A stretch of DNA of 61,815 bases, taken from the NCBI GenBank assembly GCA_026396805.1, contig JAPLVZ010000008.1, forward strand, positions 1-61,815. The letters are read 5' to 3'. This DNA is from Candidatus Falkowbacteria bacterium. GTDB taxonomy: Bacteria; Patescibacteriota; Patescibacteriia; Patescibacteriales; UBA12465. Of this stretch, positions 2,853-47,989 are shown one piece after another; position 1 is the stretch's first letter, and each line of letters begins with the position of its first letter. The notes under the pieces were generated by a model. It did no database searches and was not told where the DNA came from. It worked only from the letters and a program-made list of their open reading frames with translations. Position numbers and translations under genes: made by a program.

Positions 2853-3554
2853 CAATTTGGCGGCTTTCCTGAGTAATTGGGATTGCAAAAGCTGACTCAT
2901 ATCGGTGAAGTCCTAACAAGTTCATTGCAAAATGACCTGTCGTATGTTAGGATAATACCGAGGGAAGTCACTTATGTCTAAATTATCTTCAGTACAAAAA
3001 TCTTATTTAGCTGGATTCATTGATGGCGATGGCAGTATTTATGTACGCCTGAAACCCAACGATAGTTATCGTTATGGTTTCCAGGTTGCGCCATATATAG
3101 TACTGTTCCAAGCATCCAAAGATGAAGAAATTTTTCGGCGGGTTTGCTCGCTGATGGATTTTGGTTATTTAAGGAAACGAAAGGATGGTATATTAGAATA
3201 TACTATCGGTCGGACTGAAGATATTATTGAACTTCTGATAATGATTAAGCCGTATCTGATTTTAAAAAAAAGACAGGCTAATCTCATGTTAGAAATTCTT
3301 AAAAAAAAGAAGTCGGTTAAAAATAAAGCCGATTTTCAAGGTTTAATGGACTTAATTGATAAATTTAGAGATTTAAATTATTCCAAAAAACGCAAAAGAC
3401 ATAAATTGACCCCGTAGAGACTGACTCCATTTGCTTTAAATAGCAATATAAGTGGGAAAGGCGTTTCTTAACTGAGGCGTCAACACGTCGGCCCCCTGTT
3501 CAACAGGGTGATGGTATAGTCCGTACACTTAGTAATAGGTGAGTTATAATTATG
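2853..3554 (+). mobile_element. Group I intron carrying a LAGLIDADG gene (E. coli-equivalent L2593)
   Basis: A 702-nt insertion lies between ...GCTGGGTTCAGACCGT and CGTAAGACAGGTCGG. It follows a T and ends in G. It contains GTAGAGACTGAC and GGTATAGTCCGTAC core-like elements. Confidence 0.8.
2974..3417 (+). CDS. Single-motif LAGLIDADG homing endonuclease (intron-encoded, I-CreI-site type)
   Basis: 147 aa with the motif LAGFIDGDGSIY near the N-terminus and a basic C-terminal tail. It sits inside the L2593 insertion. Confidence 0.85.
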   Translation: MSKLSSVQKSYLAGFIDGDGSIYVRLKPNDSYRYGFQVAPYIVLFQASKDEEIFRRVCSLMDFGYLRKRKDGILEYTIGRTEDIIELLIMIKPYLILKKRQANLMLEILKKKKSVKNKADFQGLMDLIDKFRDLNYSKKRKRHKLTP

Positions 3555-4069: not shown

Positions 4070-4161
4070 AATGGTGTTTTTTGTTGGGGAAAACCGTCAT
4101 TTAGGCCTTTATTAAAAGGCTTTTTTGTTATACAATTAGATTATAATATTAAAGATTATCT

Positions 4162-5583
4162 ATGCCTTTAATCAAATCAATCTCCGGTATCCGCGGCACG
4201 ATTGGCGGCGTCTCGGGTGAGAATTTAACTCCGCTAGATATTGTTAACTTTACCGGTGTTTTTGTTTTATTTTTAAACAAGAAATACCCGGGTACTAAGA
4301 TAAAAGTAGTGATTGGGCGAGACGGAAGAGTTTCCGGCGAGATGGTAAAAAATTTAACCGTTGGCACGTTATTAGCTCGGGGTGTAAATGTAATTGATTT
4401 AGGACTCGCGACTACGCCAACCGTAGAGGTCGTGGTAGTTGGCCAGAAAGCTCAGGGCGGCATTATTCTGTCCGCTTCTCATAATCCGCAGGGCTGGAAT
4501 GCTTTGAAGTTTATCGACGCTCGGGGTGAATTTTTATCTAAAGTTGACGGTGAAGAAATATTAGCGCTGGCTCAAGAAAATAAAGGAGATTTTTCTTCCG
4601 AAGAAAACCTTGGCTCCTATGTTATCAACCCCTTTCTTTTTCAAGAACATTTACGGCAAATCTTAGAGATACCGTTGGTTGACGTTGAGACGATTAAGTC
4701 TAAAAATCTCAAAGTAGTTGTTGACGGGATTAATGCGGTCGGTGGCATGGCCGTACCAGAATTATTAAAGCTGTTGGGTATTGATAATATTATTGAACTC
4801 AATTGTGAACCCAACGGTCAATTTACCCATAAGCCAGAGCCACTCGCGGAGAATCTAGCCCAAATCAGAGAAGTCGTGAAGAAAGAAAAGGCGGATTTAG
4901 GGATCGTCGTTGATCCAGACGTTGATCGTTTAGCTTTTATTATGGAAAACGGGGAAATGCTGAGCGAAGAATATACGATTGTGGCGATTGCCGATTATGT
5001 TTTAGAAAACTTTGCCGTTATTGAGACTGCTCGGCCGGGTAAGTATACTAAAAATACAGTTTCCAACCTCTCTTCCTCCCGCGCCTTAAAAGATATCACG
5101 GAAAAACACGGTGGTCAGTATGAAGCCGCGGCGGTTGGCGAGGTTAATGTCGTGACTAAGATGAAAGAATTAAGATCGGTTATTGGCGGCGAAGGGAATG
5201 GCGGCGTTATTTTTCCCGAACTCCACTACGGTCGTGACGCGCTCGTTGGCATCGCTTTATTTTTAAGTTATCTGGTCAAGAAAAATATATCCATGTCAGA
5301 AATGTATCAGGAACTACCGCAGTATTTTATGGTCAAAGATAGAATTGAATTAACGCCTGACATAAATTTACCGGCTATCCTTGAACAGATTAAGCAAACA
5401 TATTCTACTGAAAAAAGCACTGATATTGACGGCGTTAAAATCGATTGGGCTGATTCTTGGGTCCATTTGCGGGGTTCAAACACCGAGCCGATTATCAGAG
5501 TTTATGCCGAAGCTAAGACTTTAGAGTTGGCGCAAGCGAAGGTAAAGGAGATAAAAGATAATATTTTAGCTTATATTAAATAA
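4162..5583 (+). CDS. glmM: Phosphoglucosamine mutase / alpha-D-phosphohexomutase
   Basis: 473 aa with the active-site loop SASHNPQGWNALKF, metal loop DPDVDR and sugar loop GEGNGG. It is followed by a GlmU-like gene. Confidence 0.8.
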   Translation: MPLIKSISGIRGTIGGVSGENLTPLDIVNFTGVFVLFLNKKYPGTKIKVVIGRDGRVSGEMVKNLTVGTLLARGVNVIDLGLATTPTVEVVVVGQKAQGGIILSASHNPQGWNALKFIDARGEFLSKVDGEEILALAQENKGDFSSEENLGSYVINPFLFQEHLRQILEIPLVDVETIKSKNLKVVVDGINAVGGMAVPELLKLLGIDNIIELNCEPNGQFTHKPEPLAENLAQIREVVKKEKADLGIVVDPDVDRLAFIMENGEMLSEEYTIVAIADYVLENFAVIETARPGKYTKNTVSNLSSSRALKDITEKHGGQYEAAAVGEVNVVTKMKELRSVIGGEGNGGVIFPELHYGRDALVGIALFLSYLVKKNISMSEMYQELPQYFMVKDRIELTPDINLPAILEQIKQTYSTEKSTDIDGVKIDWADSWVHLRGSNTEPIIRVYAEAKTLELAQAKVKEIKDNILAYIK

Positions 5584-8437: not shown

Positions 8438-9490
8438 ATGGCTAAAGAAAAAGACAAAAAGATTGTCTCGGAAAAGGAAGAGAATAAAGACAAGCGCGAC
8501 GACGCGGCGTTAAACGCCATCGCGCAGATTAGGAGCCGTTTCGGCGAAGGCGCGATTATGAAACTCGGCGACGTGCCGAAAACTAACGTCGACGCGATTT
8601 CCACCGGTTGTTTATCTTTAGATATCGCGACCGGTGTCGGCGGCGTCCCGCGCGGTCGAGTCATTGAAATTTATGGTCCGGAATCTTCCGGTAAAACGAC
8701 TTTAGCGCAGCATATTGTCGCGGAAGTGCAAAAACTCGGCGGAATCGCCGCTTTCGTTGATGCCGAACATGCGCTGGATCCGGAATATGCCGCTAAAATC
8801 GGCGTTAACATCAAAGAGATGTTATTGTCCCAGCCGGATAGTGGCGAGCAGGCCTTAGAAATCGTCGAGACTCTGGTCCGTTCTAACGCGGTTGATGTTG
8901 TCGTTATTGATAGCGTCGCCGCTTTAGTGCCGCAGAAAGAAATCGAAGGTGAGATGGGCGACCAACATATGGGCTTACAGGCGCGTTTAATGAGCCAGGC
9001 TTTACGCAAACTAACCGCCATTATCGCCAAAACCAATACGGTCGTTATTTTTATCAATCAAATCAGAAATAAGATCGGTGTTTTTTTCGGCAATCCGGAA
9101 ACGACGACCGGCGGCAACGCTTTAAAGTTCTATTGTTCCGTCCGAATTGAAGTCCGCCGCGCCGCTCAGATAAAACAAGGCGAAAAAATAATCGGCAACC
9201 GCGTTAGAGTGAAAATCGTCAAGAATAAAGTGGCCGCCCCTTTCCGGACTTGCGAATTTGACATCATGTATAACGAAGGAATTTCCGTCTCCGGCGATCT
9301 GGTCGATTTGGGCGTGGAATATAATGTCATCAAGAAGAACGGCAATACTTATTCTTTCAAAGAAGTGAAACTTGGCACCGGCCGTGAAGTCGCCAAGAAG
9401 ATTATCAAAGAAGATAAGAAATTGGCCGCGGAAATCCGCAAAGCGATTCTAGTCGAGGTAAAAGCTAAGGAGATTGAAGAAAATAAATAG
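8438..9490 (+). CDS. recA: Recombinase RecA
   Basis: 350 aa with Walker [12 protein letters not shown], plus the IDSVAAL and NQIR blocks. Confidence 0.97.
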
Positions 9491-18733: not shown

Positions 18734-19162
18734 ATGAGAATCCGAGCCTTAAATCATTCAACCTATCAACATCAGTATCATATAGTCTGGGGCACCAAAT
18801 ACCGCCGGAAGTTTTTAAAAGAGTATGTAAGGCCGGAGCTTCTGGCCGTCTTTGGCAACGCCATGAAAAAATATCCCGAGCTCCAGCTTATCGCCATAAA
18901 TACGGATAACGACCATATTCATATGCAAATTGAGATACCCCCAGACATTTCAGTTGCAGCCGCCGTCCAACAATTAAAATCGATGTCCTCGGCTCATCTC
19001 AAAAAAAAGTTTAAATTCATTAAAACTATGTATCTCGACGGCGGCATCTGGAGCGTCGGATATTTTTCCTCGACAATAGGGTTGAACGAAGAACAAATTA
19101 AAAAGTATATCGCTTGGCAAGGCCAGAAGGATTTACCGCAGTCAACAACGCTCGGATTCTAA
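18734..19162 (+). CDS. tnpA: IS200-type Y1 (HUH) transposase TnpA
   Basis: 142 aa with the YHIVWGTKYRR block, HUH-like HIHM, and a C-terminal catalytic-Tyr region (KKYIAWQ). Confidence 0.92.
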   Translation: MRIRALNHSTYQHQYHIVWGTKYRRKFLKEYVRPELLAVFGNAMKKYPELQLIAINTDNDHIHMQIEIPPDISVAAAVQQLKSMSSAHLKKKFKFIKTMYLDGGIWSVGYFSSTIGLNEEQIKKYIAWQGQKDLPQSTTLGF

Positions 19163-25960: not shown

Positions 25961-26761
25961 ATGTTCAAAATCCGTAACTCAAATAAGAAAAAACTCCTAG
26001 TCTTAGCGATTATTTTAGTGATTATCGCCGGGGGTTATTTAAATCGTGCCTATTCTCATATTTATGGGGTGCTCGGCGCCGCTGATTTAAGGCCGGCAAA
26101 CGGGCAGGGAACTTATTTAATAGGCGGAACTAATTTAATAGAGGGCGTTAACCAGATAAATAATATGGCGACCACCAGTCTTATCTATGTTGCTTTAGGG
26201 GACAGTTTGACCGCCGGAGTCGGTACTGATAGTTATCAGGAAATATTACCTTACCTCTTGGCTGAAAAATTTGCCGCCGGCGAAAAGACGATTGTTCTAA
26301 AGAATCATTCTGTTCCCGGAGCGGAAACCGCGGACGTAGTTACTGATCTCCTCTCCACGGCCATTAATGATAATCCGGATATTGTCACGCTTTTAATCGG
26401 TGTTAATGACATCCATAATAAAGTTTCGGCCGCGAAGTTCACGGAGAACTATGAGGAGATTTTAAATCGTCTCCAGCGGGGGACAAGGGCGAAGATTTAT
26501 GTTATTAATCTTCCGTTCCTGGGTTCTGATAAATTGATGCTTCCGCCATACCAGTCTTTATTCGACGCGCGGACTCGGGAATTTAATGAAATCATTAAAG
26601 GCCTGGCCGATAAATATTCCGTTCAATATATAGATTTATATACGCCGACCGTTGAACTATTTAAACGTTCCGGCGACCATTATTCAAAAGATTTATTTCA
26701 TCCTTCCGCCGGCGGTTATAAACTTTGGGCGGACATAATTTATGATCGTATCAATAACTAA
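25961..26761 (+). CDS. SGNH/GDSL hydrolase with an N-terminal membrane anchor
   Basis: 266 aa with block I ALGDSLTAG, block III GVND and block V DLFHPS. Confidence 0.85.
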   Translation: MFKIRNSNKKKLLVLAIILVIIAGGYLNRAYSHIYGVLGAADLRPANGQGTYLIGGTNLIEGVNQINNMATTSLIYVALGDSLTAGVGTDSYQEILPYLLAEKFAAGEKTIVLKNHSVPGAETADVVTDLLSTAINDNPDIVTLLIGVNDIHNKVSAAKFTENYEEILNRLQRGTRAKIYVINLPFLGSDKLMLPPYQSLFDARTREFNEIIKGLADKYSVQYIDLYTPTVELFKRSGDHYSKDLFHPSAGGYKLWADIIYDRINN

Positions 26762-27845
26762 TCCAATCCAGGCCACTTGGATTTTTTCGCTTCTGTTTGG
26801 CGCGGTTCTGCTCATTTCCGCGCGGCCGCGAAAAATTACCGACTGGTTTCCGGCGTCTTTGACAACGGAGCTAAAGGGAGTGGCGATACTTATGATCGTT
26901 CTTTCCCATATCGGATATTTTTTGGTTTCCGATACTCGCTTCCTTTGGCCGCTCTCAATTATGGCCGGCGTCGGCGTCAATTTATTTTTGTTTTTATCCG
27001 GTTTCGGTTTGACGGCCAGCGGTCTGCAGAAAAATCTTAGCGTTGGCCAATTTTATAAGCGCCGTCTCTTAAAATTATTCACGCCGTTCTGGTTGGCTCT
27101 AGTGATTTTCTTGGCGGCCGATTTTTTTATTCTCGGGAAGAGTTATTCCTTTACTTTCCTTTGGCAAGGGATACTGGGGATTTTTACGCACGCGAATTTG
27201 TATACCGACTTTAATTCGCCGCTCTGGTATTTTACCTTGATCCTTTTATATTATTTGTTGTTTCCGTTAGTATTTTTTAAACGTTTCCCTTGGCTCTCGG
27301 CAATTATTCTCTTTCTTGCCGGTAATTGGTTGATTAAACTGGAGCCGACTTTTTTTGACAATGTTTTGTATCTTTATAAAATTCATATTATGGCGTTTCC
27401 GCTCGGCGTTTTGGCGGCTTGGGCGGTTACGAAATTACCGAGCGCGGCCTGGCTGGAAAAATTGTCTAAAGGCTGGCGGGCGATTGGATATTATTTGGTT
27501 TTACTAAGTTTATTGGCGGTTTTTGTCTATGCGAATATTAATTCCGGTATCGGCGGCAGCGCGTCTAAAGAACAATGGATGAGCGTGATAGCTGTTTTAA
27601 CAATCGCCCTGGTATTTATGATGAAGAAATTAGAGTTTAGATTATTTTCTCTCTTCGGATTATATTCCTATGAGATTTATCTGTGGCATTGGCCACTTAT
27701 GTATCGCTATAATATTTTTTACGGCTTCATGCCGCCTTGGCTGGCGACGATTTTGTATTTAGGGTTGTTTATCGGGGTGGGATGGGGTGCGCAGAAGATT
27801 ATGGGGTTGTTAAATAAGTCGAGGTTAATGATGGTAAAAAAATAA
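26742..27845 (+). CDS. Acyltransferase family 3 (integral membrane O-acyltransferase)
   Basis: 367 aa and polytopic, with the early G..ILMIVLSH motif. It overlaps the SGNH gene by 20 nt. Confidence 0.8.
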   Translation: MIVSITNPIQATWIFSLLFGAVLLISARPRKITDWFPASLTTELKGVAILMIVLSHIGYFLVSDTRFLWPLSIMAGVGVNLFLFLSGFGLTASGLQKNLSVGQFYKRRLLKLFTPFWLALVIFLAADFFILGKSYSFTFLWQGILGIFTHANLYTDFNSPLWYFTLILLYYLLFPLVFFKRFPWLSAIILFLAGNWLIKLEPTFFDNVLYLYKIHIMAFPLGVLAAWAVTKLPSAAWLEKLSKGWRAIGYYLVLLSLLAVFVYANINSGIGGSASKEQWMSVIAVLTIALVFMMKKLEFRLFSLFGLYSYEIYLWHWPLMYRYNIFYGFMPPWLATILYLGLFIGVGWGAQKIMGLLNKSRLMMVKK

Positions 27846-27858
27846 TTCTCAAAAAAAT

Positions 27859-27885
27859 CAGGAGCCTAGTCAGCTCCTGTTTTTA
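27859..27885 (+). terminator. Intrinsic terminator
   Basis: CAGGAGC-(7 nt)-GCTCCTG followed by TTTTT. Confidence 0.7.
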
Positions 27886-27966
27886 TTTACGATGTCGGGA
27901 TTAAAATAGTAATTTGTTAGAATTACAATATAAAATAAATAAATTAAATATTTTTTACGTAAAATT

Positions 27967-29907
27967 CTATCTAACTATACTAAAATCATAATTCTTATTT
28001 CCAAAGAATGAATATTTTTTTGATATTAGTTTTTGTTTCTCCTTATTATTTAAACCGCTAAGATAAAGTTTGCCGCTGTAAGACGGCGGTAGTTTTAGCC
28101 CGTCAATTGTTGCTAGCCCGTCGAGGAGAAGATCACCATTAAATGACTGAGGTAATTTCAACCCTCTGGCCGATTTAAGACCACGGAGGTTTAAGCTGCC
28201 AACAACTTCCGGTAATTGAAGATTTTCAGCTGATTCCAAATCCATTAGATTAAGATCGCCGGTGACTATTCTTGGTAACCGTAAATTATTGGCATCTTTT
28301 AAGAAATATAAATACAGGTTGCCATTAATGACTTTCGGTAAAACTAAGCCATCAGCTGAAGTTAGTTCATTAAAAGATAAGTCTCCTTTCATGGTTTCGG
28401 AGAATTTTAAACCTTTAGCCGTTGTGCATTCTACAAACAAATCACCATAATGATATTTATTTCCGCAATTTAGAGTTTCTCCTAGGGTAACGTTTAAACT
28501 CTTTGGACTAGTAAGGCTGATATCATCTTTAGAATAACCGAGGGCGAAGGAAATGTCCTCTTTAATATCCCGGCTATCTATTAACTCTATTATTCTTGGG
28601 TCATCTTCAAATCCAAACCCCTGTATTTTACTGTCTATTTCATACAAAAATTTAATATCCTCTTTAGATAATGTTTCTCCTTTTTTAATTTTAGTTTCAA
28701 CTTCAGTCAGACGCTTCATATCGGCAGATTTCTTTTCATATTCCTTACTGTCAGGAAATTTAGCCATTTTTTCTTTAACGATATCATTAATGTAAGGATC
28801 CATATTTTGGCTCGGAGCAATGCCGCGAACTTCGGCAATTTTATCCTCCTCCATTCTAATAGCGACGCGCGGAATAACAGCTTCGCCGTCTTCATTATTA
28901 GAATAATAAACATGGAAATCTCCACCTTGAAGTTGAGTCTTGGCAGTATCGGCATCGGCGGTACACCACTCCAAGGGATGGCCATCCAGCGATTTTACCA
29001 ATTCATCCGGTTCAGATCCTTGTTTATAGATAACCCATTTTCCGCGCGTTTCCTTTAAGCCGTCAGTAGAATATTCAGGAATTTCTTTTAAAAACTGGGC
29101 ATAAATCTTTGAGAAATTTTCTGAATTTAAAAGTTCTTTAAATTCTACAGCATTTAACCTTTTGCTTTTATTTTCAATTTTTTCTTTTTCTTCCTTGGTA
29201 TTTTTAAGATTGTTTTCCGCTTTGTTGGATATCGACCCGATAGTCAGAGCCAAGGCCCTGGGGTTTAGCGGTGGAAATGAGGCAACCGTATCTTTAGTTC
29301 TTCTTTTAAATTGAACGAGTTCTGCTTTAGTGTCCGGATCTTCTTTTTTTTCAAGCTTCCCCATACTAAGTACGGATTTAAAAGTCCAATATTTCGCCCA
29401 CATGGGATATTGGGCATTAGCAGATGATAAATAATTTATCCACTTGTCCAAACTTCTTTTTTGGTTATTTATTATTTCGTTGGTCTTTTTTTGTCTAAAT
29501 TCATCGGTAATTTCAACCGTCCCATGTCCCAGTTCTCTAGCAATTTTCTGCTCCAACAAAAAAGTCGCCTCGGGGATATCCTCAGCTTTAATTACATTTT
29601 CTTTGTAATAGAATTCTTTAATTCTATCTATAACCCTGGGGTCGTCTTGATGCCCTAAATGAGTTTTTTCTATTACCTCTAACCAATTAGCAATCTTATC
29701 AGCCGGTTTTTGAGATAATTGTTCTTTTTTTTCTTTGTCTTTTTCAGGTTCAACTTTATCGGCTGGCTTCTGCAACAATATTTCCTTTTCTTTTTTATCT
29801 TTATAGTCTTCTTTTATTTTTCTTCTTTCCGCTTCATACTCAACCGGCTGAGACGTGTGAAGTTTAGTATCTTTTTGACTTAAAAATTGTTCACCAAAAT
29901 TTTTCAT
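27967..29907 (-). CDS. Large hypothetical protein with a C-terminal array of ~22-23-aa leucine-rich-like repeats
   Basis: 646 aa. The N-terminus has a duplicated QKPADK segment. The C-terminal repeats follow a GDL.L..L.SA.GL.LP pattern. The region is AT-rich. Confidence 0.6.
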   Translation of the reverse strand: MKNFGEQFLSQKDTKLHTSQPVEYEAERRKIKEDYKDKKEKEILLQKPADKVEPEKDKEKKEQLSQKPADKIANWLEVIEKTHLGHQDDPRVIDRIKEFYYKENVIKAEDIPEATFLLEQKIARELGHGTVEITDEFRQKKTNEIINNQKRSLDKWINYLSSANAQYPMWAKYWTFKSVLSMGKLEKKEDPDTKAELVQFKRRTKDTVASFPPLNPRALALTIGSISNKAENNLKNTKEEKEKIENKSKRLNAVEFKELLNSENFSKIYAQFLKEIPEYSTDGLKETRGKWVIYKQGSEPDELVKSLDGHPLEWCTADADTAKTQLQGGDFHVYYSNNEDGEAVIPRVAIRMEEDKIAEVRGIAPSQNMDPYINDIVKEKMAKFPDSKEYEKKSADMKRLTEVETKIKKGETLSKEDIKFLYEIDSKIQGFGFEDDPRIIELIDSRDIKEDISFALGYSKDDISLTSPKSLNVTLGETLNCGNKYHYGDLFVECTTAKGLKFSETMKGDLSFNELTSADGLVLPKVINGNLYLYFLKDANNLRLPRIVTGDLNLMDLESAENLQLPEVVGSLNLRGLKSARGLKLPQSFNGDLLLDGLATIDGLKLPPSYSGKLYLSGLNNKEKQKLISKKYSFFGNKNYDFSIVR

Positions 29908-29921
29908 ATTATTTCTTTATG

Positions 29922-29985
29922 TGTCGGGGTGGAGAGATTCGAACTCTCGATCTTCCGATCCCAAACCAGACGCCTTAAACCAACT
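29922..29985 (-). pseudogene. Truncated copy of the tRNA-Pro 3' portion (direct repeat, att-like)
   Basis: 61 of 64 positions are identical to 31186-31249. It lacks the 5' acceptor arm, and its anticodon stem is disrupted. Confidence 0.85.
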
Positions 29986-29988
29986 TAA

Positions 29989-30435
29989 TTAATTTTCTTT
30001 ACTTTTAATCAAATCATCTATTTTATTCAATAAAACCCGAGCGTCGTTCATGGCTTGTTTTAATTCCGCCTCAGAAATGCTAGCCAGAGTACCATAATCG
30101 AACCTATTTCTTTTCTGTCTCATTTTTTGAATTCTTTGAAATTCGTTGCTCATATCCCCGTTCAATAATTCACCGGCGGCGTTAATGGTTATATAATGAT
30201 ATCCTTCCGAACTTTTCTTTGCCCGGTATCCGGATAACCATAAAACAATCTCACAGCCCATCCGGATAGAATCGTAAAGGTTAGTATAAATAATATCCTC
30301 ATCCCCCGTCCCTGATAAATTTTTAACGGCAAAATTAAAAATCCGACGCGCTTTTTTTCGTCTATTTTCAATATCCGCTAAAGAAACAGTGAATTTTTCT
30401 ATTTGGTCGTTATTTGATAATTTTTGTGAATTCAT
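29989..30435 (-). CDS. HEPN-domain protein (putative toxin of a HEPN/MNT pair)
   Basis: 148 aa, helical, with the C-terminal motif RQKRNRFDYG (an R-x-x-x-x-Y/H type HEPN signature). It overlaps the upstream MNT gene by 26 nt. Confidence 0.6.
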   Translation of the reverse strand: MNSQKLSNNDQIEKFTVSLADIENRRKKARRIFNFAVKNLSGTGDEDIIYTNLYDSIRMGCEIVLWLSGYRAKKSSEGYHYITINAAGELLNGDMSNEFQRIQKMRQKRNRFDYGTLASISEAELKQAMNDARVLLNKIDDLIKSKEN

Positions 30436-30988
30436 AAGAATCGCCTTTTAAAGAGATTAAGGGGGAAGAAAAAATATTGATAAAAAAACTGTCGTTTTCT
30501 TTGATTTTTTTGATAACTTCCGCGCGACTGAAAATATGATAATTTATTTCTCGATTGATTTCTCCCTCAATTTTACTGATTTCATTAATCAAGATATTTT
30601 GATCAATTTTGCCGACAAGCATCAGATCGACATCGCTATTACCATTCTCTTTGTTTTTAGCGATTGAACCGAAAAGAAAAGCGCCGTCTAAATCATTGAA
30701 TTTATCAACCAGATTTCTTAATTTAGCTTCCAAACCGACGGTTTTTGAAATGATACTTTTTAATTCCGCGAAGAGATGATAATTTTTGTTTAATCTGAAA
30801 AATCGCATATTGCCCTTGCGTTCGTCCTGTAAAATTCCTTGGTCGACCAATTCGTCTAAATGTCTTTGGTAATGGCTCGGTTCTTTATTTAAGCTTTTGG
30901 CGATTTCTCTAAGATAATAGTCTTTTTCGGGATCGCTAAAAAGAAGTTTAAGAATCTCGCCTTTGCCGTTTTTAAAAAAATCTAACAT
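30410..30988 (-). CDS. wHTH + minimal nucleotidyltransferase (MNT) protein (putative antitoxin/regulator)
   Basis: 192 aa with an N-terminal ArsR-like winged helix (YLREIAKSLNKEPSHYQRHLDELVDQG) and the NTase motif GS-x10-SDVDL. Confidence 0.7.
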   Translation of the reverse strand: MLDFFKNGKGEILKLLFSDPEKDYYLREIAKSLNKEPSHYQRHLDELVDQGILQDERKGNMRFFRLNKNYHLFAELKSIISKTVGLEAKLRNLVDKFNDLDGAFLFGSIAKNKENGNSDVDLMLVGKIDQNILINEISKIEGEINREINYHIFSRAEVIKKIKENDSFFINIFSSPLISLKGDSYEFTKIIK

Positions 30989-31048
30989 ATTTATTTAAGT
31001 TTTAGGTATATGATTTATAGTATTGTTTTTGTATACGATTGTATATAA

Positions 31049-31077
31049 ATTGTATACAACTTAATAAGAAGTGTCAA
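31049..31077 (-). promoter_or_regulatory. Sigma70-type promoter for the MNT/HEPN operon
   Basis: On the minus strand, TTGACA (31077-31072), a 17-nt spacer, then TACAAT (31054-31049). It is overlapped by three TTGTATA repeats spaced 10-11 bp apart. Confidence 0.55.
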
Positions 31078-31079
31078 TT

Positions 31080-31119
31080 ATGTCCATGGACTTGTACATA
31101 TGTCTGTGGATTTGTATAT
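31080..31119. repeat. Imperfect 20-bp tandem repeat upstream of the MNT promoter
   Basis: ATGTCCATGGACTTGTACAT / ATGTCTGTGGATTTGTATAT (16 of 20 identical). Confidence 0.8.
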
Positions 31120-31187
31120 TATATCTTTTTATATTTTTTGCCTTGTTTTCGCAAAAAAAGGACAATTTAATGTCCGTCTTTCATTTG

Positions 31188-31262
31188 TCGGGGTGGAGAG
31201 ATTCGAACTCTCGATCTTCTGGTCCCAAACCAGACGCCTTAGACCAACTGGGCCACACCCCG
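31188..31262 (-). tRNA. tRNA-Pro (anticodon TGG), no CCA
   Basis: Cloverleaf with CGGGGTG/CACCCCG acceptor, anticodon loop TTTGGGA, T-loop TTCGAAT. Confidence 0.9.
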
Positions 31263-31328
31263 GATATATACCTAAAAAAATAAACCCAACAATATAAATA
31301 TAGCCTGGGCTTATCTTTTGTCTATACG

Positions 31329-31400
31329 TGCCCCGGGTCAGAATTGAACTGACGACACAAGGATTTTCAGTCCTTTGCTCTACCACTGAGCTACCGAGGC
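31329..31400 (-). tRNA. tRNA-Phe (anticodon GAA), no CCA
   Basis: Cloverleaf with GCCTCGG/CCGGGGC acceptor, anticodon loop CTGAAAA. Confidence 0.9.
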
Positions 31401-31429
31401 ATGAAAATTTTATTGTTAAAACTATCCTG

Positions 31430-31502
31430 TTGCGGGGGTCGGACTCGAACCGACGACCTCTAGGTTATGGGCCTAGCGAGCTGCCAACTGCTCTACCCCG
31501 CT
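31430..31502 (-). tRNA. Initiator-type tRNA-Met (anticodon CAT), no CCA
   Basis: Strong block similarity to E. coli tRNA-fMet as I recall it (xGCGGGG..GAGCAG..AGCTCG..AGGTCGTCGGTTC..CCCCGCAA). It has a 1:72 mismatch (A-A) and the anticodon loop CCCATAA. Confidence 0.8.
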
Positions 31503-31565
31503 ATGATATTTGTTTGGCTTTACTGAACATGGCTTACTTGGGCTTTTCAATTAATCTCGGGCGAT

Positions 31566-31642
31566 TGGTGGGCAATGGAGGATTCGAACCTCCGACCTCA
31601 ACATTATCAGTGTTGCGCTCTAACCAACTGAGCTAATTGCCC
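31566..31642 (-). tRNA. tRNA-Ile (anticodon GAT), CCA encoded
   Basis: Cloverleaf with GGGCAAT/ATTGCCC acceptor, anticodon loop CTGATAA. Confidence 0.92.
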
Positions 31643-31702
31643 GTAATTTACGAGTAAAAATATAACAAATAATAAATAAAAAGGCAAGCGTTCACGTTTG
31701 TT

Positions 31703-32671
31703 TTAGAGCTCGGAAATGAGCAGGCTTAATTCGGTTCTAACATCGCCGCGCCCGGTTTTATTTAAAAAGTCTAAATGGATCAGACGGTTCAAGTAATTCT
31801 TTAAGACCGAAGCGCTGAAATTTCTGGCTTGAAGCGCGCCCTTCTTCGCGACGTAAGGATGGATTTTCAGCCGACTGGCCATTTCGGCCGGATTCATGTT
31901 AGCGTCCAGAGCGGCGCGGATTTGGAGGAGAATTTTGAATTGGCGGGTCAGCATAGTCAGTAAATATTCATCGCTTAACCCGGCGGCATATTGCTCTTCT
32001 ATCAGACTGATGGCCGCTTTTCTATTTTTCGCGCTAATAGCGTCGGTCAGGCCGAAAATATTTTCATCGTAAGTTCCGGGCACCATCTCCTTGACCGATT
32101 CGGGACTTATCACCGGCTCGCCGCTGCGAAAAGACAATTTTTTTATTTCCGTGCTTATCTGCCAAAGGTCGCCGCCGGTTAAATCGGCCAATAGGGAAGC
32201 GGCCGGAGCACCGATGTCTTTATTGTAAAGCGCCGCTTCTTTTTTAATGAAAGTTAAAAGCTGGGCGGGAGCGAGAGGTTTGAATTCTTGGGTATAGGGC
32301 TGGAGCTTGAAGAAGGCTAATAATTTTTTAGCCGGCGCTTTCAGAGCCTTGGTTTGGCCGGCGATATCTTCGTCGCGAAAAATCAAGATGTTATCGTCGC
32401 TCTTAGTCAGTTTTTCCAGATAAGCGGTCAGTTCGCTAAAAATCTTGTCCGATTTATTTTTGAAAATATTTTCAATGACCACGAGTCTTTTTTTGACGAA
32501 GAGCGAACCGGTATTGATTTGTTCGCTGATGGCGCTTAGAGTCGCGCTAGACCCGTCAATCACGCTGAAACTATGGGAATTTTGATCCACGTCTTTGATG
32601 AATTTATTTTTCAGTTCTTGGAGGAAACGGCGGGAGCGGAAAGAATCGGCGCCGTAAAGAGAGATGATCAT
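31703..32671 (-). CDS. holA: DNA polymerase III delta subunit
   Basis: 322 aa with N-terminal LYGADSFR and a HolA-like three-domain helical C-terminus. Confidence 0.75.
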   Translation of the reverse strand: MIISLYGADSFRSRRFLQELKNKFIKDVDQNSHSFSVIDGSSATLSAISEQINTGSLFVKKRLVVIENIFKNKSDKIFSELTAYLEKLTKSDDNILIFRDEDIAGQTKALKAPAKKLLAFFKLQPYTQEFKPLAPAQLLTFIKKEAALYNKDIGAPAASLLADLTGGDLWQISTEIKKLSFRSGEPVISPESVKEMVPGTYDENIFGLTDAISAKNRKAAISLIEEQYAAGLSDEYLLTMLTRQFKILLQIRAALDANMNPAEMASRLKIHPYVAKKGALQARNFSASVLKNYLNRLIHLDFLNKTGRGDVRTELSLLISEL

Positions 32672-32716
32672 ATTTTATATGGCAGCTATTTTATAGCTCG
32701 AATTTATAATTCAGCT

Positions 32717-33559
32717 TTATAACTCGGATATCTTAACTCGTTCTAAATTTTTTATTTCACTTCCCAGGAATTTTTCGCCCCAATCTTTAAAAAGACGCTG
32801 GTCGTCGGTCGTATAAAATTTACAGGTTGGGTTCGCTGGCGTCGTCAATCCCAATTCTTCGTGGCGAGCGAGATAATCAACCAAGCTTCGGGCGATAATT
32901 TCCCCGGGTTGCGGCACGAGAATGCGCCGTCCCATTATTTTGTTTATTTCTTTATAGAGAAAAGGGTAATGAGTGCAACCGAGAATGAGCGCGTCTATCT
33001 GCTTAGCTTTAAGCGGCCGCAAATATTTTTTTAAGATCATCTTGGTTTCCGGCTTGCGCGCCCAACCCTCTTCAATCAGCGGAACGAGCAAGGGGGTGGC
33101 TTGTTGCTCTATCCTTAATTCCGGCTTTAATTTTTTCAGTTCCAGTTTGTAAGCGTCAGAGTTTATCGTCGCCTTAGTGCCGATGATACCGACCGATTTA
33201 ATTTTTTTATCGCGAGCGATCGCCTCAACTAACGGTCGAATAACGCCGAGTATTCGGCGGTCCGGATAAGCAGACGGCAGATATTCCTGCTGTAAACGGC
33301 GGAGCGCTTGAGCGGAGACGGTATTACAGGCGATAATTATCAGATTACAGCCGGCGGTAAACAAGAAATCAGCGGCCTCGCGGGTATAATCATAGATGGT
33401 TTCCGGTGATTTTTCGCCGTAGGGCAAACGGGCGTTATCACCGAGATAAATATAATTATATCCGGGGTTATCATGCAAGAAATATTTTAAAACCGTTAGA
33501 CCGCCGAGGCCGGAATCAAAGACGCCGATGATATTTTTTTTATTTTCTTGACCTAACAT
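32717..33559 (-). CDS. murI: Glutamate racemase
   Basis: Motifs GVFDSGLGGLTV, IIACNT and LGCTHYP. The track ORF extends to 33652. I prefer the ATG at 33559 (MLGQENKK), which overlaps the murD stop region. Confidence 0.9.
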   Translation of the reverse strand: MLGQENKKNIIGVFDSGLGGLTVLKYFLHDNPGYNYIYLGDNARLPYGEKSPETIYDYTREAADFLFTAGCNLIIIACNTVSAQALRRLQQEYLPSAYPDRRILGVIRPLVEAIARDKKIKSVGIIGTKATINSDAYKLELKKLKPELRIEQQATPLLVPLIEEGWARKPETKMILKKYLRPLKAKQIDALILGCTHYPFLYKEINKIMGRRILVPQPGEIIARSLVDYLARHEELGLTTPANPTCKFYTTDDQRLFKDWGEKFLGSEIKNLERVKISEL

Positions 33560-34883
33560 ATTTTTTAAACAAATCGCCGCGCTCTTTGTAGTTTTTAAAT
33601 ATGCCGAAACTGGCGCAGCCGGTGGAAAGCAGGACGACATCACTCTCGGCACCGGCTATTTTAGCAATCCTGACCGCCGTTTTCATATCCGCCGCCGTTT
33701 TTAAACAGTTTTTTTGAAAACCCGCCGCCATAACCGCTTTTTGCAAGCGCGGAGTCGCTTGGTCCGGAAGTAAAATTAATAATTTTACGCGTTGCTTGAT
33801 TATTTTCGCCAGCGGCCGGAAATCAGCGCCTTTATCGGCTCCGCCGGCGATAAGAATTATCGGAGTAGAGAATGATTTTAAATCCAAGGCCGTACTTTCG
33901 GGAGTAGTGGAAAAACTATTATCAAAATACCGGACGCCTTTTATTTTTTTAACTAATTCCAAGCGATGCTCAAGATTAGTAAAATTGGCGACGGTTTTTT
34001 TATAAACGCTCGGCTTTATTTTTAATAATTCGGCGCTGGCGACGGCGGCCGCGATATTCTGTCGATTAAAATCGCCGATCATAAGCGAAGGCAGAGAACT
34101 GGCGCCAAAATAAATTATTTTAGTTTTTAGCCCAGACGCTTTTATTTTTTTAGCTAGATTCTTATTGACGACTAAATATTTATTATCTTTATTCTTCGCA
34201 ATTTGGAGCTTCGCTAGCCAATAGGCTTTATAAGAAGAATGAGAATTAGGGTTATTAGGGTCGGCCGGCGCCAGATGTTCTTTAAAGAGATTGGTGATGA
34301 CGGCGAAACGGGGTGAATATTTTAAATCTTCCAGCTGGAAGCTGGATAATTCCAAGACGACATAGTCGGTCGCTTTAATCTTGTCCAAAAAACCCAGAGG
34401 CGAAACGCCGATATTGCCGCCGAGCCAAACGCGTTTTTTGGCGTCAGCCAGTATTTTATAAATCAGACTAGCGGTCGTGCCCTTACCCTTAGTGCCGCTC
34501 ACGCCGATAATATTTTTAGACGGGCAGAGAGAAAAGAACAGATTAAGAGGATTGGATAATTCGGTTCGGCCATTTTTCAGAGCGGCGCGTATGCCCGGAC
34601 AGGCAAGCGGCCAGCCCGGAGACCGGAAAAGGATATTGAATTTATCTAGACGCTTATTAAAACTTGAGCCCAGTTGATAATTTATTTTTGAATAAGCGGA
34701 TTTTACGGCTGGCAGAGCGGTCAGCAGGTGGAAATCGCAGATCGTTATTTCGGCCGCTATTTTATGTTTTTCCAGTAACGCTAAAAGAGCCTGGTTATCC
34801 AGACCAAAACCGAGCAGGGCGATTTTTTTGGTCTCCAGCCGGTCTAATCCTGATTTTTTAATATTTTTTTTCATTTTGGACAT
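33540..34883 (-). CDS. murD: UDP-N-acetylmuramoylalanine--D-glutamate ligase
   Basis: Mur ligase P-loop GVSGTKGKGTT. An alternative upstream start at 34916 would overlap the polA stop. Confidence 0.88.
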   Translation of the reverse strand: MSKMKKNIKKSGLDRLETKKIALLGFGLDNQALLALLEKHKIAAEITICDFHLLTALPAVKSAYSKINYQLGSSFNKRLDKFNILFRSPGWPLACPGIRAALKNGRTELSNPLNLFFSLCPSKNIIGVSGTKGKGTTASLIYKILADAKKRVWLGGNIGVSPLGFLDKIKATDYVVLELSSFQLEDLKYSPRFAVITNLFKEHLAPADPNNPNSHSSYKAYWLAKLQIAKNKDNKYLVVNKNLAKKIKASGLKTKIIYFGASSLPSLMIGDFNRQNIAAAVASAELLKIKPSVYKKTVANFTNLEHRLELVKKIKGVRYFDNSFSTTPESTALDLKSFSTPIILIAGGADKGADFRPLAKIIKQRVKLLILLPDQATPRLQKAVMAAGFQKNCLKTAADMKTAVRIAKIAGAESDVVLLSTGCASFGIFKNYKERGDLFKKYVRSRK

Positions 34884-34897
34884 TTGATAAATTCTCT

Positions 34898-44635: not shown

Positions 44636-45451
44636 ATGATTAACAAACAATCTTTGGGCAATAAAATCAAGGCTTTAAGAGAGTTTGATGACATGAGCCA
44701 GGAAGATTTGGCTCAAAAAATCGGCTTATCAAGAGTCGCTATATCACAAATCGAACAAGGCAATAGAAGCGTTGATTTTTTAGAGCTGGCCAAAATAGCC
44801 GAAGTTTTTAAATTGAAAACTGATTATTTTTTAATTGAAGATGAATTGCCAAATATCGAATTAGCTAAGAATCAAAAAAAAGTTAATAATTTTGATCCAA
44901 AAAAATTAAAAAATGTTATTTTATATATTCTAGAAAAATGCGCGGGAAAACCGAACGTCGGAGAAACAGTCTTGTATAAATTATTATATTTTATTGATTT
45001 TGATAATTTTGAAATTAACAACCAATCAATCTCGGGGTTAGATTACATTCATTTACAATACGGCCCAGCGCCAGCAGCCCTACAATATTCGCCGGTTATA
45101 GAAGCGATGAAGGCCAACCAAGAACTTAAAATTATTATTCAAGATTATTTCGGTTTAAAAATAAAACGCTATATTAATTTAATTGGGCATAATATTGACT
45201 CTTTATGCCCCAAAGAAACAAAAGTTATCGATGACGTCATAGGATCTCTTTCTAATATGTCTGCTTCGCAGATAGAAGAATATTCGCATGGCGACGCTCC
45301 CTGGCAATTAACCGGCGATAAGGAAGCCATTCCGTATAACCTTGTTTTTGAACGTCAAACACCTTACGCCAAAAGAAGTCCTGATGATTTAAGATGTTTC
45401 AAAATGACAGGAGCTAAAGACATATTAAATCAATTAGGCTCTATTTTCTAA
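44636..45451 (+). CDS. XRE-family HTH fused to a DUF4065/Panacea (SocA-like) antitoxin domain
   Basis: 271 aa with the HTH MSQEDLAQKIGLSRVAISQIEQGNR, then the block VLYKLLYFIDFDNF...LQYGPAP that I recognise as DUF4065-like. Confidence 0.65.
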   Translation: MINKQSLGNKIKALREFDDMSQEDLAQKIGLSRVAISQIEQGNRSVDFLELAKIAEVFKLKTDYFLIEDELPNIELAKNQKKVNNFDPKKLKNVILYILEKCAGKPNVGETVLYKLLYFIDFDNFEINNQSISGLDYIHLQYGPAPAALQYSPVIEAMKANQELKIIIQDYFGLKIKRYINLIGHNIDSLCPKETKVIDDVIGSLSNMSASQIEEYSHGDAPWQLTGDKEAIPYNLVFERQTPYAKRSPDDLRCFKMTGAKDILNQLGSIF

Positions 45452-45478
45452 AACAGAATACGATCATTACGAAAATCT

Positions 45479-45832
45479 ATGATGACGAAAGGCGAGATTA
45501 GCTTCGGCGATGTTGTTTGGGCTGAATTTGATCCTAGTGTTGGACACAAATATCAAAGTAAAAGACCGGCAATTGTCGTTGAGTCAGATGAACAATTAAA
45601 AAAGACAAATTTGATTACTATAATTCCGCTCACTTCGCAAAAAGATAATCGTATGTCCGATGATATTTTAGTGGAAGCTTGCAAGGAAAATAATCTAATG
45701 TCTGATTCGCTAGCTAAAGTGTATTGTATAACGTCCTTTGATTACGCAAGATTTGAGAAAGTAGTCGGGAGAGTAAATAAAGAAATTTTGTTAAAAATTA
45801 AGAATTATTTTAAAAAACATTTTGATATATAA
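45479..45832 (+). CDS. PemK/MazF-family toxin (putative endoribonuclease)
   Basis: 117 aa with GDVVWAEFDPSVGHKYQSKRPAIVV and IIPLTS blocks. Confidence 0.8.
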   Translation: MMTKGEISFGDVVWAEFDPSVGHKYQSKRPAIVVESDEQLKKTNLITIIPLTSQKDNRMSDDILVEACKENNLMSDSLAKVYCITSFDYARFEKVVGRVNKEILLKIKNYFKKHFDI

Positions 45833-47907: not shown

Positions 47908-47915
47908 TTTGTTTG

Positions 47916-47989
47916 TGGACCCTATCGGATTCGAACCGATGACCCCCTGCTTGCAAAGCAGGTGCTCTAGCCAGCTGAGCTAAGGGCCC
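47916..47989 (-). tRNA. tRNA-Ala (anticodon TGC), no CCA
   Basis: Cloverleaf with GGGCCCT/AGGGTCC acceptor, including the G3-U70 Ala identity pair, and anticodon loop TTTGCAA. Confidence 0.92.

Follow-up and report, generated by a model that had tools for sequence, protein, structure and literature searches.

Two modules without a recombinase of their own, inserted head to tail at a tRNA-Pro gene of a Candidatus Falkowbacteria bacterium

Introduction

How does a two-gene cassette come to lie between two copies of part of a tRNA gene when no recombinase gene lies with it? The question is raised by a stretch of 61 815 nt (positions 1 to 61 815 of contig JAPLVZ010000008.1, assembly GCA_026396805.1; here called the window) from a Candidatus Falkowbacteria bacterium of the Patescibacteriota. 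A preliminary description of the window, made from the sequence alone, pointed to overlapping genes for a winged helix-turn-helix (wHTH) nucleotidyltransferase and a HEPN-like protein, bracketed by a direct repeat of the 3' portion of tRNA-Pro(TGG), and took the arrangement to be the footprint of site-specific integration, with the cassette either mobilised in trans or left as the residue of a larger element. Genomes of the candidate phyla radiation measure about 1 Mb, and their mobile elements are poorly known.

We find that 3286 nt have been inserted at the 3' end of tRNA-Pro(TGG). The insertion consists of two modules arranged head to tail, the HEPN/MNT cassette and a gene for a 646-aa protein, with one tRNA repeat of 64 nt inside it, another of 7 nt at its outer edge, and no recombinase of its own. 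Below we establish its edges, describe the two modules, and weigh how they may have arrived. Comparison loci and contigs are cited by our own handles (L178 and the like) where they must be told apart.

Results

A 64-nt piece of tRNA-Pro recurs beyond the cassette

Read along the minus strand, the order is the intact tRNA gene, a trailer with terminator, a 75-nt spacer, a promoter, the MNT open reading frame (ORF), the HEPN ORF, 3 nt, the tRNA fragment, 14 nt, and the ATG of the 646-aa ORF. The features are as follows.

31187-31262, minus: intact tRNA-Pro(TGG) gene (ARAGORN; Rfam tRNA, 65.9 bits; cloverleaf fold)
31153-31186, minus: trailer and intrinsic terminator, hairpin GGACATTAAATTGTCC at 31160-31175 and then T7 (terminator scan)
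31078-31152, minus: spacer, 75 nt (direct reading)
31029-31077, minus: cassette promoter, -35 TTGACA at 31077-31072, 17-nt spacing, -10 TACAAT at 31054-31049 (promoter scan, 11/12)
30410-30988, minus: wHTH-MNT nucleotidyltransferase, 192 aa, putative antitoxin and autorepressor (Pfam, PADLOC)
29989-30435, minus: HEPN-domain protein, 148 aa, putative toxin of UPF0332/AF0298 type (profile, fold, PADLOC)
29922-29985, minus: distal copy of tRNA-Pro nt 14-76 plus one base, without the 5' acceptor strand (61/64 identical)
27967-29907, minus: 646-aa gene, the second module, with C-terminal repeats resembling leucine-rich repeats (LRR)
27900-31185, minus: whole inserted block, 3286 nt, comprising the cassette, the 64-nt joint and the 646-aa module (alignment to L178)
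27893-27899, minus: CCCGACA, ancestral tRNA-Pro 3' end at the outer edge of the insertion (blastn against L178; sequence comparison)
27859-27879, unstranded: native bidirectional terminator CAGGAGC..GCTCCTG, the same as the terminator after tRNA-Pro in L178

The tRNA-Pro(TGG) gene closes a cluster of tRNA-Ile, Met, Phe and Pro. Its 3' 63-64 nt (31186-31249) recur at 29922-29985 with 61 of 64 identities. The repeat finder reports the pair as 70 nt at 93% (29916-29985 against 31180-31249), and blastn with the tRNA as query against the whole window recovers its nt 14-76 at 29923-29985 (60/63, E 1e-24), the sole tRNA fragment of the 61.8 kb. The preliminary claim of a 61/64 repeat of the tRNA 3' portion is thus borne out by ARAGORN, Rfam, the repeat finder and blastn alike. 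A 64-nt repeat is far beyond chance. Assembly artefact was ruled out together with chance, on the blastn E value, on independent contigs from several samples and on even depth across the joints. Contig L127 runs from the HEPN gene through the fragment into the 646-aa gene, and an X7 contig covers 28712-30432; unitig L128 (1290 nt, present in 10 samples) is the exact stretch between the two 34-nt exact cores of the repeat, as expected for a k=31 graph.

The distal copy begins at nt 14, in the D-loop, 3 nt past the HEPN stop codon, and ends 14 nt ahead of the start codon of the 646-aa gene. It does lack the 5' acceptor strand, as had been stated. It spans the 3' acceptor, T-arm and anticodon arm that the preliminary description listed, a list that was incomplete, since the 3' strand of the D-stem and the variable loop are also covered. 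All three differences between the copies are transitions. Two of them fall in the anticodon stem (CCAGA to TCGGA), where G.U and U.G wobbles replace a G-C and a U-A pair; the stem is thereby weakened and not, as had been thought, broken. Beyond the tRNA end a much weaker similarity between the copies continues for about 6-11 nt.

A degenerate 62-nt pattern located 21 tRNA-Pro loci in our genome collection. The tRNA sequence is 100% identical in most of these related genomes, and every one of the 21 loci is a complete gene that has the canonical base at each of the three variable sites; the T/T/G variant of the distal copy occurs in 0 of the 21. No duplicated fragment, with or without the cassette, was found among them. 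Relatives carrying the duplicated fragment without the cassette, which in the preliminary description would have indicated a local tRNA duplication, therefore do not occur in this set.

The insertion is absent from the closest relative

The gene order around the locus is polA-murD-murI-holA-tRNAs-tRNA-Pro, then variable DNA, then acyltransferase(-)-lipase(-)-S15-NYN-PNPase. Using the acyltransferase as query, we found L178, which is much closer to the window than any other relative (amino acid identities of 97% for PNPase, 99% for NYN, 98% for S15, 94% for holA and 93% for PolA). Its tRNA-Pro is followed by 12 nt, the hairpin CAGGAGCTGACTAGGCTCCTG-T7 and then the acyltransferase gene. At least eight further, more distant relatives likewise have tRNA-Pro followed by a terminator and the acyltransferase gene, with nothing inserted.

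The two blastn alignments between the window and L178 (window 27350-27899 and 31186-34893), whose flanks are 82-93% identical at the nucleotide level, overlap by exactly 7 nt, at L178 7931-7937. In the window these 7 nt appear as CCCGACA at 27893-27899, forming a 7-nt direct repeat with 31186-31192. Because the L178 site is empty and the alignments abut with this 7-nt overlap, we conclude that the block 27900-31185 was gained after the window and L178 split. The native terminator at 27859-27879 still separates the old tRNA-Pro end from the convergent acyltransferase gene (26742-27845).

The cassette is therefore inserted DNA at a tRNA gene, as had been proposed, with the site empty in L178 and in the at least eight other relatives. 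The empty site predicted in the preliminary description, a tRNA-Pro directly before the gene at 27967-29907, was found nowhere; that gene itself lies inside the insertion. With respect to the marks of a tRNA-gene islet, the locus shows adjacency to an intact tRNA gene, an empty site in relatives and a distal tRNA repeat, and lacks an internal integrase.

Several minor differences were seen at the same locus in other genomes. The acyltransferase gene of L178 lacks about 237 nt (window 27113-27350) at L178 7365-7372 and is a possible pseudogene, and the tRNA-Pro of L178 (7931-8007) has the T-loop TCCGAAT, not TTCGAAT. L153, L154, L155 and L163 (holA about 80%) have a different, 72-nt tRNA-Pro(TGG) at the same position of the cluster (for example L153 8874-8945), while the 76-nt type is common to L178, the window and more distant genomes, which suggests that at this hotspot the tRNA gene itself has been replaced. 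In L001, tRNA-Phe(GAA) at 4075-4385 is split after the anticodon-loop region by a structured insert of about 250 nt, probably a group I intron, and receives no ARAGORN call; L163 and L154 have no tRNA-Phe called in the same cluster either.

The cassette encodes a Class II HEPN/MNT pair

The first ORF of the cassette matches the Pfam families Polbeta (2.1e-8, 34.7 bits, cut-off 26.9) and NTP_transf_2 (1.4e-6, 29 bits, cut-off 21), and its catalytic motif GSx10DxD is present as G-S-IAKNKENGNS-D-V-D. Matches of its N-terminus to the ArsR-type wHTH are weak and below cut-off. The PADLOC profile PDC-M05A aligns residues 4-188 with positions 10-196 of 201 (2.5e-47); because this profile covers the wHTH, the domain is probably typical of PDC-M05. 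The 336 MNT homologues are all from Patescibacteria, and homologues of the cassette are restricted to the same group.

The second ORF is harder to place singly, scoring E 0.058 and 14 bits against Pfam HEPN (PF05168), below the cut-off of 22. Its relatives settle the matter: PF05168 is matched by 16 of 20 close and 42 of 75 distant ones (best 8e-14), and a profile built from 75 relatives retrieves AF0298 (2hsb), a solved UPF0332 protein, from the PDB at 2.9e-11. A profile of the close family found no match among PDB sequences; only the wider profile succeeded. The AlphaFold model (pLDDT 88, pTM 0.85), when searched with Foldseek, has as its best matches HEPN domains throughout, with 2hsb, 4nqf and the sacsin HEPN at the top and HepT toxins included. 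The PADLOC profile PDC-M05B aligns residues 1-145 with positions 1-140 of 146 (1.4e-16). The identification of the pair made in the preliminary description thus holds, with Pfam, PADLOC, the family profile and AlphaFold/Foldseek in agreement; of the two profile searches that it proposed, the one for NTP_transf_2 passes its cut-off directly, and the one for HEPN succeeds by way of the family profile and the fold.

The HEPN protein carries the motif R109-x4-Y114 (RNRFDYG), without His; the canonical R-x4-6-H is absent. Y54, R109 and Y114 are invariant in the 75 relatives, and H80, in another helix, is nearly so. Because of these invariant residues, and because a Tyr occupies the position of the His, we take the motif of this family to be R-x4-Y and neither R-x4-6-H nor RX4HXY; AF0298 shares R-x4-Y. 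No relatives of the HEPN protein were found in the viral contigs of IMG/VR, and a viral origin of the cassette was rejected on this ground.

Class II HEPN/MNT systems have been defined as a PF05168 HEPN protein without RX4HXY beside an MNT protein, in a study that also described Class I and an AMPylation mechanism (PMC7641770), and PADLOC lists PDC-M05 as a nucleotidyltransferase with a HEPN protein whose antiviral role is unconfirmed (PMC12988326). Judged by its sequence, the pair is a member of Class II, equal to the candidate PDC-M05, and does not belong to Class I/type VII; against the NCBIfam MntA equivalog the MNT protein scores 23.7 bits, with a cut-off of 60. By analogy, the Class II pair probably works similarly to type VII. 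To our knowledge no Class II HEPN/MNT member has been tested for toxicity or defence.

The cassette is a compact operon with its own control region

Between the repeat copies lies about 1.26 kb that forms a single operon of two ORFs overlapping by 26 nt. As had been described, these two overlapping genes and their own consensus promoter, scoring 11/12 in our scan, are all that the interval encodes. Three operator repeats of GTATACAA type overlap the promoter and form a putative binding site for the wHTH of the MNT protein. The TTGACA hexamer and the block GTATACAAT...TACAATTGTA.ACA, which overlaps the -10 element, are kept in seven cassette copies from five genomic contexts. Across copies, homology starts exactly at the -35 hexamer and stops 2-7 nt after the HEPN stop codon.

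The 75-nt spacer upstream lies outside this shared unit. Within it lie two 16-mers in tandem, at 31115-31100 (ACAAATCCACAGACAT) and 31095-31080 (ACAAGTCCATGGACAT), with the core palindrome GTCCATGGAC. No blastn match to the spacer was found in any fetched locus, and it is absent from all other cassette copies. It could be a binding site for a regulator or a recombinase.

The trailer and terminator after the tRNA resemble those of other lineages

The trailer and terminator at 31153-31186 gave local alignment scores of 23, 19 and 17 against the tRNA-Pro trailers of L139, L143 and L135, where shuffled sequences gave 6.9 ± 1.4 and 0 of 2000 shuffles reached these scores. The score against the L178 trailer was 8 (p 0.24). 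Because these three trailers match and that of L178 does not, we interpret the terminator after the intact tRNA gene as imported DNA of chromosomal type, from another Falkowbacteria lineage. The trailer that follows the distal fragment is closer to the foreign trailers than to that of L178, though the resemblance is not significant alone (p 0.04-0.12).

Two further facts bear on how such DNA might enter. The tRNA-Pro genes are identical across most of the 21 genomes though their holA proteins are only 53-64% identical, and the window encodes a RecA protein (8438-9490).

The second module has relatives beside other tRNA genes

Pfam, NCBIfam, PADLOC and the PDB yielded no match to the 646-aa protein; its C-terminal 170 aa or so consist of LRR-like repeats of the form LxLxxLxSAxGLKLP. 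It has more than 600 homologues, in Patescibacteria and also in metagenome-assembled genomes of Bdellovibrio-like bacteria and of Erysipelotrichaceae/Tenericutes, and some relatives bear extra domains (PF04399, HNH_5). The gene is missing from L178 and from L001. Scans found no promoter or terminator between the cassette and the 646-aa gene. Lacking its own promoter, this gene is probably transcribed by read-through from that of the cassette. Its 5' part is matched perfectly by two metatranscriptome contigs of 151 nt (29436-29586 and 29604-29754).

The closest relatives of the protein are 75-77% identical, and members of the family lie near tRNA genes or pieces of them. L182 (77%) has the gene 204 nt past tRNA-Ser(TGA) (region L182 4709-5003), and L013 has a family member after tRNA-Ser(GGA). 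In L004 (75%; 4480-4740) a tRNA-Ser 3' fragment of about 17 nt precedes the same terminator and leader that L182 has, and no tRNA gene was seen up to 4.7 kb away. The nucleotide homology of the window to L182 and L004 spans 27909-29913. In L005 (59%; islet 512-2972) the gene is bracketed by a repeat of tRNA-Ser from the T-loop to the 3' end (579-599 against 2952-2972, 19/21), and just inside both islet ends lies an exact 21-nt repeat, AATTGTGACGCTATTGTGACA, whose copies could be arm sites. On the strength of these four patterns, small integrase-less modules bounded by tRNA 3' fragments recur in the group. A close variant of the 646-aa gene was also sought as an intermediate having one module only; the best candidate, at 77%, is the one located after tRNA-Ser.

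Other copies of the cassette lack flanking repeats

The cassette lies directly after tRNA-Pro and a terminator in the window and in L001, directly after the tRNA-Gly of a tmRNA-Leu-Gly cluster in L002 and L126, in inverted (convergent) orientation beside a tRNA-Pro of another isotype in L098, upstream of infC in L122-L125, and before three unrelated genes in L184-L186; in a clade at 60% identity it occupies a conserved non-tRNA locus. Among 49 cassette loci tested, only that of the window has a true flanking repeat, and in L001, L002 and L126 no decayed attR copies after the HEPN gene rose above shuffled controls.

Three ideas about these copies were given up. A 44-nt repeat at L099 and L100, considered as a target duplication, proved to be one member of an intergenic repeat family. 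Greater conservation of the cassette than of its flanks was dropped as a sign of horizontal transfer, the orthologous L002 and L126 showing the same pattern (72/73% against 44%). Finally, the idea of the window and L001 as sisters with an inherited cassette gained no support from trees of holA and of the acyltransferase, both of which are star-like.

A distant homologue of the pair (60% and 48% amino acid identity for MNT and HEPN) lies within an array of small ORFs at L100 2015-5586, and also in L099 and L101. The L100 array has five copies of a repeat of about 90 nt (CCGCCCGGCAGTTTAGAGAGGAAAGCGGTGGAGGAGGAG...) spaced 691-1284 nt apart, plus a second, hairpin repeat (GAGATTGCCGCGCCGCCCTGATTACAGGGGCGGCTCGCAATGA); it resembles either the cassette array of an integron or a family of intergenic repeats, here in a Patescibacteria genome.

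No recombinase and no excision signal accompany the block

The block encodes only the MNT, HEPN and 646-aa ORFs, and a Pfam scan of all window ORFs of at least 100 aa found no recombinase families, in agreement with the preliminary description. The only genes of mobile type in the window are two LAGLIDADG ORFs and an IS200-like TnpA 11 kb away. Nor did the cassette prove to be accompanied by integrases elsewhere, a point that the preliminary description proposed to check: among 149 representative ORFs neighbouring the more than 50 cassette homologues, no family of recombinases recurs (in the top 25 families listed; singletons could hide), and no integrases were found in the variable DNA at the tRNA-Pro of other genomes.

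Contigs of eight metagenomes and three metatranscriptomes were mapped onto the locus. In three of four metagenomes the word depths of cassette and flank were 26.8 and 25.1, 22.7 and 21.9, and 32.4 and 32.3 (ratios 1.00-1.07); in the fourth, X2, of low depth, the cassette fell from 8.5 to 5.1 against a flank of 6.5 (about 1.3 falling to 0.8). Because cassette depth matches flank depth, we regard the cassette as fixed and single-copy. Contig depth gave no signal of excision or circles and the contigs showed no informative joints, in data that hide attB and attP joints, the exact core of the repeat (34 nt) being no shorter than k=31.

Discussion

Homologous recombination on the tRNA sequence

The account towards which we lean, without great confidence, is that two integrase-less islets were stacked at tRNA-Pro and joined by a crossover within invariant tRNA sequence, the agent being host homologous recombination. 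The incoming DNA would have carried the 3' 63 nt of a tRNA-Pro, a foreign trailer with its terminator, and the operon. One reciprocal crossover inside the tRNA-Pro sequence, identical across lineages, would join it to the chromosome, rebuilding an intact tRNA gene before the imported terminator and cassette and pushing the copy of the tRNA 3' part downstream. Host homologous recombination acting on such portable homology would be the most likely agent and a dedicated integrase a less likely one; a small circle might have inserted in Campbell fashion, or homology on one side might have combined with an illegitimate joint at the HEPN stop codon. Once in place, the islet would be stabilised by an addictive MNT/HEPN pair: judged by its family, the HEPN protein would be the toxic partner and the MNT protein, with its GSx10DxD motif, would neutralise it, probably by nucleotidylylation, while the wHTH would allow MNT to repress the operon through the GTATACAA repeats.

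Host homologous recombination is favoured, first, because of the imported terminator, the abrupt boundary in the D-loop and the lack of integrases, and second, because the other cassette copies have no repeats and the L098 copy is inverted. The site-specific integration put forward in the preliminary description has thus not been demonstrated; the foreign terminator, the D-loop start and the repeat-free copies of L001, L002, L126 and L098 fit homology-driven capture at least as well.

Several considerations weigh on the other side. Foreign DNA flanked by a directly repeated tRNA 3' part is the textbook picture of integrase-mediated integration, and homology-facilitated illegitimate recombination is rare. 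The outer 7-nt repeat lies exactly at the tRNA end, as an integrase would leave it, and the tRNA-Ser repeat of L005 with its internal 21-nt repeat suggests that tRNA-targeting integrases act in the group. A 1.26-kb circle requires an earlier illegitimate event, DNA uptake by the organism is assumed, and nothing directly names the enzyme. The contig-level data cannot reveal excision or circles, given an exact core of 34 nt against a k of 31. As for the addiction step, the HEPN protein has no canonical His, toxicity, neutralisation, AMPylation and repression are extrapolated from the family, and the metatranscriptomes contained no cassette reads.

Alternative explanations

A strong rival, though in our view a less probable one, names a different agent: a tyrosine integrase acting in trans, encoded at another place in the genome or on a passing element, would have recombined the 64-nt tRNA-like attP of a mini-element resembling a cis-mobilizable element (CIME), either with tRNA-Pro or with the att site that belonged to the resident 646-aa islet. 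Accretion of ICEs (integrative and conjugative elements), IMEs (integrative and mobilizable elements) and CIMEs into tandems has been described, with CIMEs defined as cis-mobilizable elements that keep their att sites and have lost their genes for integration and transfer (PMC5704250). The bracketing of foreign DNA by a tRNA 3'-part repeat, the 7-nt repeat placed exactly at the tRNA 3' end, the two repeats of L005 and the tRNA-Ser fragment preceding the 646-family gene of L004 all speak for such an integrase, as do the close-clade cassettes found directly after tRNA-Pro, tRNA-Gly and tRNA-Pro again, in three independent contexts. Yet no integrase occurs in the block or the window, or recurrently near the cassette homologues; the terminator has its homologues among the chromosomal tRNA-Pro terminators that other lineages possess, and an attP need not carry one; and other copies have no flanking repeat, one of them being inverted. 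Integration into tRNA genes usually involves a crossover in the anticodon loop or the T-loop, whereas the repeat here starts in the D-loop. The equal depth of cassette and flank in four metagenomes also counts against this explanation, with contigs being a weak test.

It is also conceivable, though we consider it doubtful, that the fragment belongs to the 646-aa module, the cassette having been resident first and the 646-aa islet having entered later. This could have happened in two ways: DNA of a related chromosome that began at tRNA-Pro nt 14 and included the 646-aa islet may have recombined homologously on its acyltransferase side and formed an illegitimate joint at the HEPN stop codon, or site-specific integration may have occurred at the 3' end of an existing fragment. 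The 646-aa gene does begin 14 nt after the fragment without a promoter of its own, related genes accompany the 3' ends of tRNA genes or fragments of them (L182, L004, L005, L013), and L001 has the tRNA-Pro, terminator and cassette and no 646-aa gene. Incoming elements often enter at attR (PMC5704250), which would suit this order. Against it, L001 is no nearer to the window than are genomes with the empty site (holA 64% versus 63-64%; acyltransferase 55% versus 58-68%), and a resident cassette is not ancestral, because L178 has neither module. The form with an illegitimate joint leaves unexplained why a direct repeat brackets exactly the cassette, and the attR form keeps the cassette as a repeat-flanked insertion and changes only the order of events.

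Quite unlikely, in our estimation, is that the cassette is what remains of a larger tRNA-Pro island whose integrase and other genes, once located between the tRNA and the MNT promoter or beyond the HEPN gene, were deleted, leaving the addictive pair and two att sites. Toxin-antitoxin pairs are the genes most likely to be retained when islands decay, and the 75-nt spacer with its tandem 16-mers sits where an integrase-proximal arm could have been. But in at least five other contexts the cassette has the same tight extent, bounded by the -35 hexamer and the stop codon, and no integrase lies nearby, so that parallel deletions would be needed; the HEPN stop lies 3 nt from the fragment and the terminator 75 nt from the promoter, which leaves no room for pseudogene remnants; and an insertion younger than the split from L178 has had little time for traceless decay. 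The larger element envisaged in the preliminary description therefore finds no support, the other copies being equally tight and integrase-free. Finally, a local partial duplication of the tRNA or an assembly artefact, unrelated to gene movement, would account for the bare existence of the repeat only and is refuted by the empty site in L178 and many relatives, the lack of any relative with a duplicated fragment, and the independent contigs that cross both joints at even depth.

Comparison with known systems

The islet is real and fairly ordinary, a minimal form of known kinds: the tRNA-associated islet or accreted tandem, carrying a Class II HEPN/MNT (PDC-M05) pair. In common with islands at tRNA 3' ends, accreted arrays and CIMEs (PMC5704250), it has foreign DNA 3' of an intact tRNA gene, direct repeats of tRNA parts at its bounds, two stacked modules with a tRNA fragment at the joint, no internal integrase and an empty site in relatives. 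It departs from them in the small size of the cassette (1.26 kb, a single operon), in a repeat of nt 14-76 that is not an anticodon-loop or T-loop core, in its foreign terminator of chromosomal type and in its streamlined Patescibacteria host. With respect to the definition of a CIME, flanking repeats that are candidate att sites are present and an integrase is absent, and no ICE, IME or prophage remnants were seen.

The overlapping MNT-then-HEPN order, the GSx10DxD motif, the R-x4-Y motif of UPF0332/AF0298 type and the full-length matches to both PADLOC profiles are those of Class II/PDC-M05; the N-terminal ArsR-like wHTH of the MNT protein is a possible difference. With type VII HepT/MntA systems (Class I; Shewanella SO_3166/SO_3165, Aphanizomenon, Legionella) the cassette shares the two-gene layout, a GSx10DxD MNT protein and a four-helix HEPN fold (7ae9, 7bxo and 5yep are among the top Foldseek matches), and by analogy enzymatic neutralisation of an RNase toxin is likely shared as well. 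Unlike those systems, its HEPN protein has a Tyr at the position of the catalytic His, no Tyr at +2 and hence no RX4HXY, and belongs to PF05168 and not to DUF86/PF01934, and its MNT protein has an extra DNA-binding domain and falls below the MntA equivalog cut-off.

Two further parallels concern arrangement. Arrays of type VI secretion system effector-immunity modules and of Rhs and contact-dependent inhibition orphan modules have been proposed to grow by displacement through homology-facilitated illegitimate recombination (PMC5361080). Here too there is a conserved upstream anchor, an older module pushed downstream with a stub, and no dedicated recombinase; the anchor is a tRNA gene and not a protein-coding core, there are only two modules, and the mechanism is inferred in both cases. 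Toxin-antitoxin cassettes of integrons resemble ours as promoter-bearing pairs that form compact mobile units, and the distant homologue of L100 lies in an array with repeats of about 90 nt, whereas the window has no attC-like site, integron integrase or array, and its flanking repeat is a tRNA fragment.

Significance

The locus is a clean, dated case of gene gain in a bacterium of the candidate phyla radiation, with an empty site in a relative at 94-99% identity and edges defined to the base. It marks the interval between tRNA-Pro and the acyltransferase gene as a hotspot with different cargo in different lineages, and it illustrates that tiny modules without a recombinase can stack at tRNA-Pro with tRNA fragments between them. 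The cassette itself is a compact and well-delimited representative of Class II HEPN/MNT (PDC-M05), with a promoter and a putative operator. Its R-x4-Y motif makes the RNase nature of these HEPN proteins a question, and likewise Y114 as a target of nucleotidylylation.

If entry did occur by homologous recombination on the invariant tRNA, defence or addiction modules would have a cheap way of crossing between lineages at about 60% protein identity. A bolder version, which we think improbable, would make the tRNA fragment a vehicle: the recombinase-free unit would loop out by RecA, be taken up by other Patescibacteria, re-enter via the identical tRNA-Pro together with the donor terminator, and become fixed by addiction. 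Were this true, stacks of small islets could build up at the tRNA genes of streamlined genomes with few or no integrases.

Other mobile and toxin-antitoxin genes of the window

Introns with LAGLIDADG ORFs are common in the rRNA genes of Patescibacteria, and the two LAGLIDADG homing-endonuclease ORFs near the window start (1746-2201 and 2974-3417, plus strand; Pfam 2e-27 and 4e-13) probably lie in introns of an rRNA gene. The IS200-like Y1 transposase gene (18734-19162, plus strand; Pfam Y1_Tnp, 9.5e-31) sits between a DHH phosphoesterase gene and trmD. A second toxin-antitoxin pair is encoded at 44636-45832 on the plus strand, with a 271-aa antitoxin of the HTH-SocA/Panacea-domain type followed by a 117-aa MazF/PemK toxin; it lies about 2 kb from tRNA-Ala (47915-47989).

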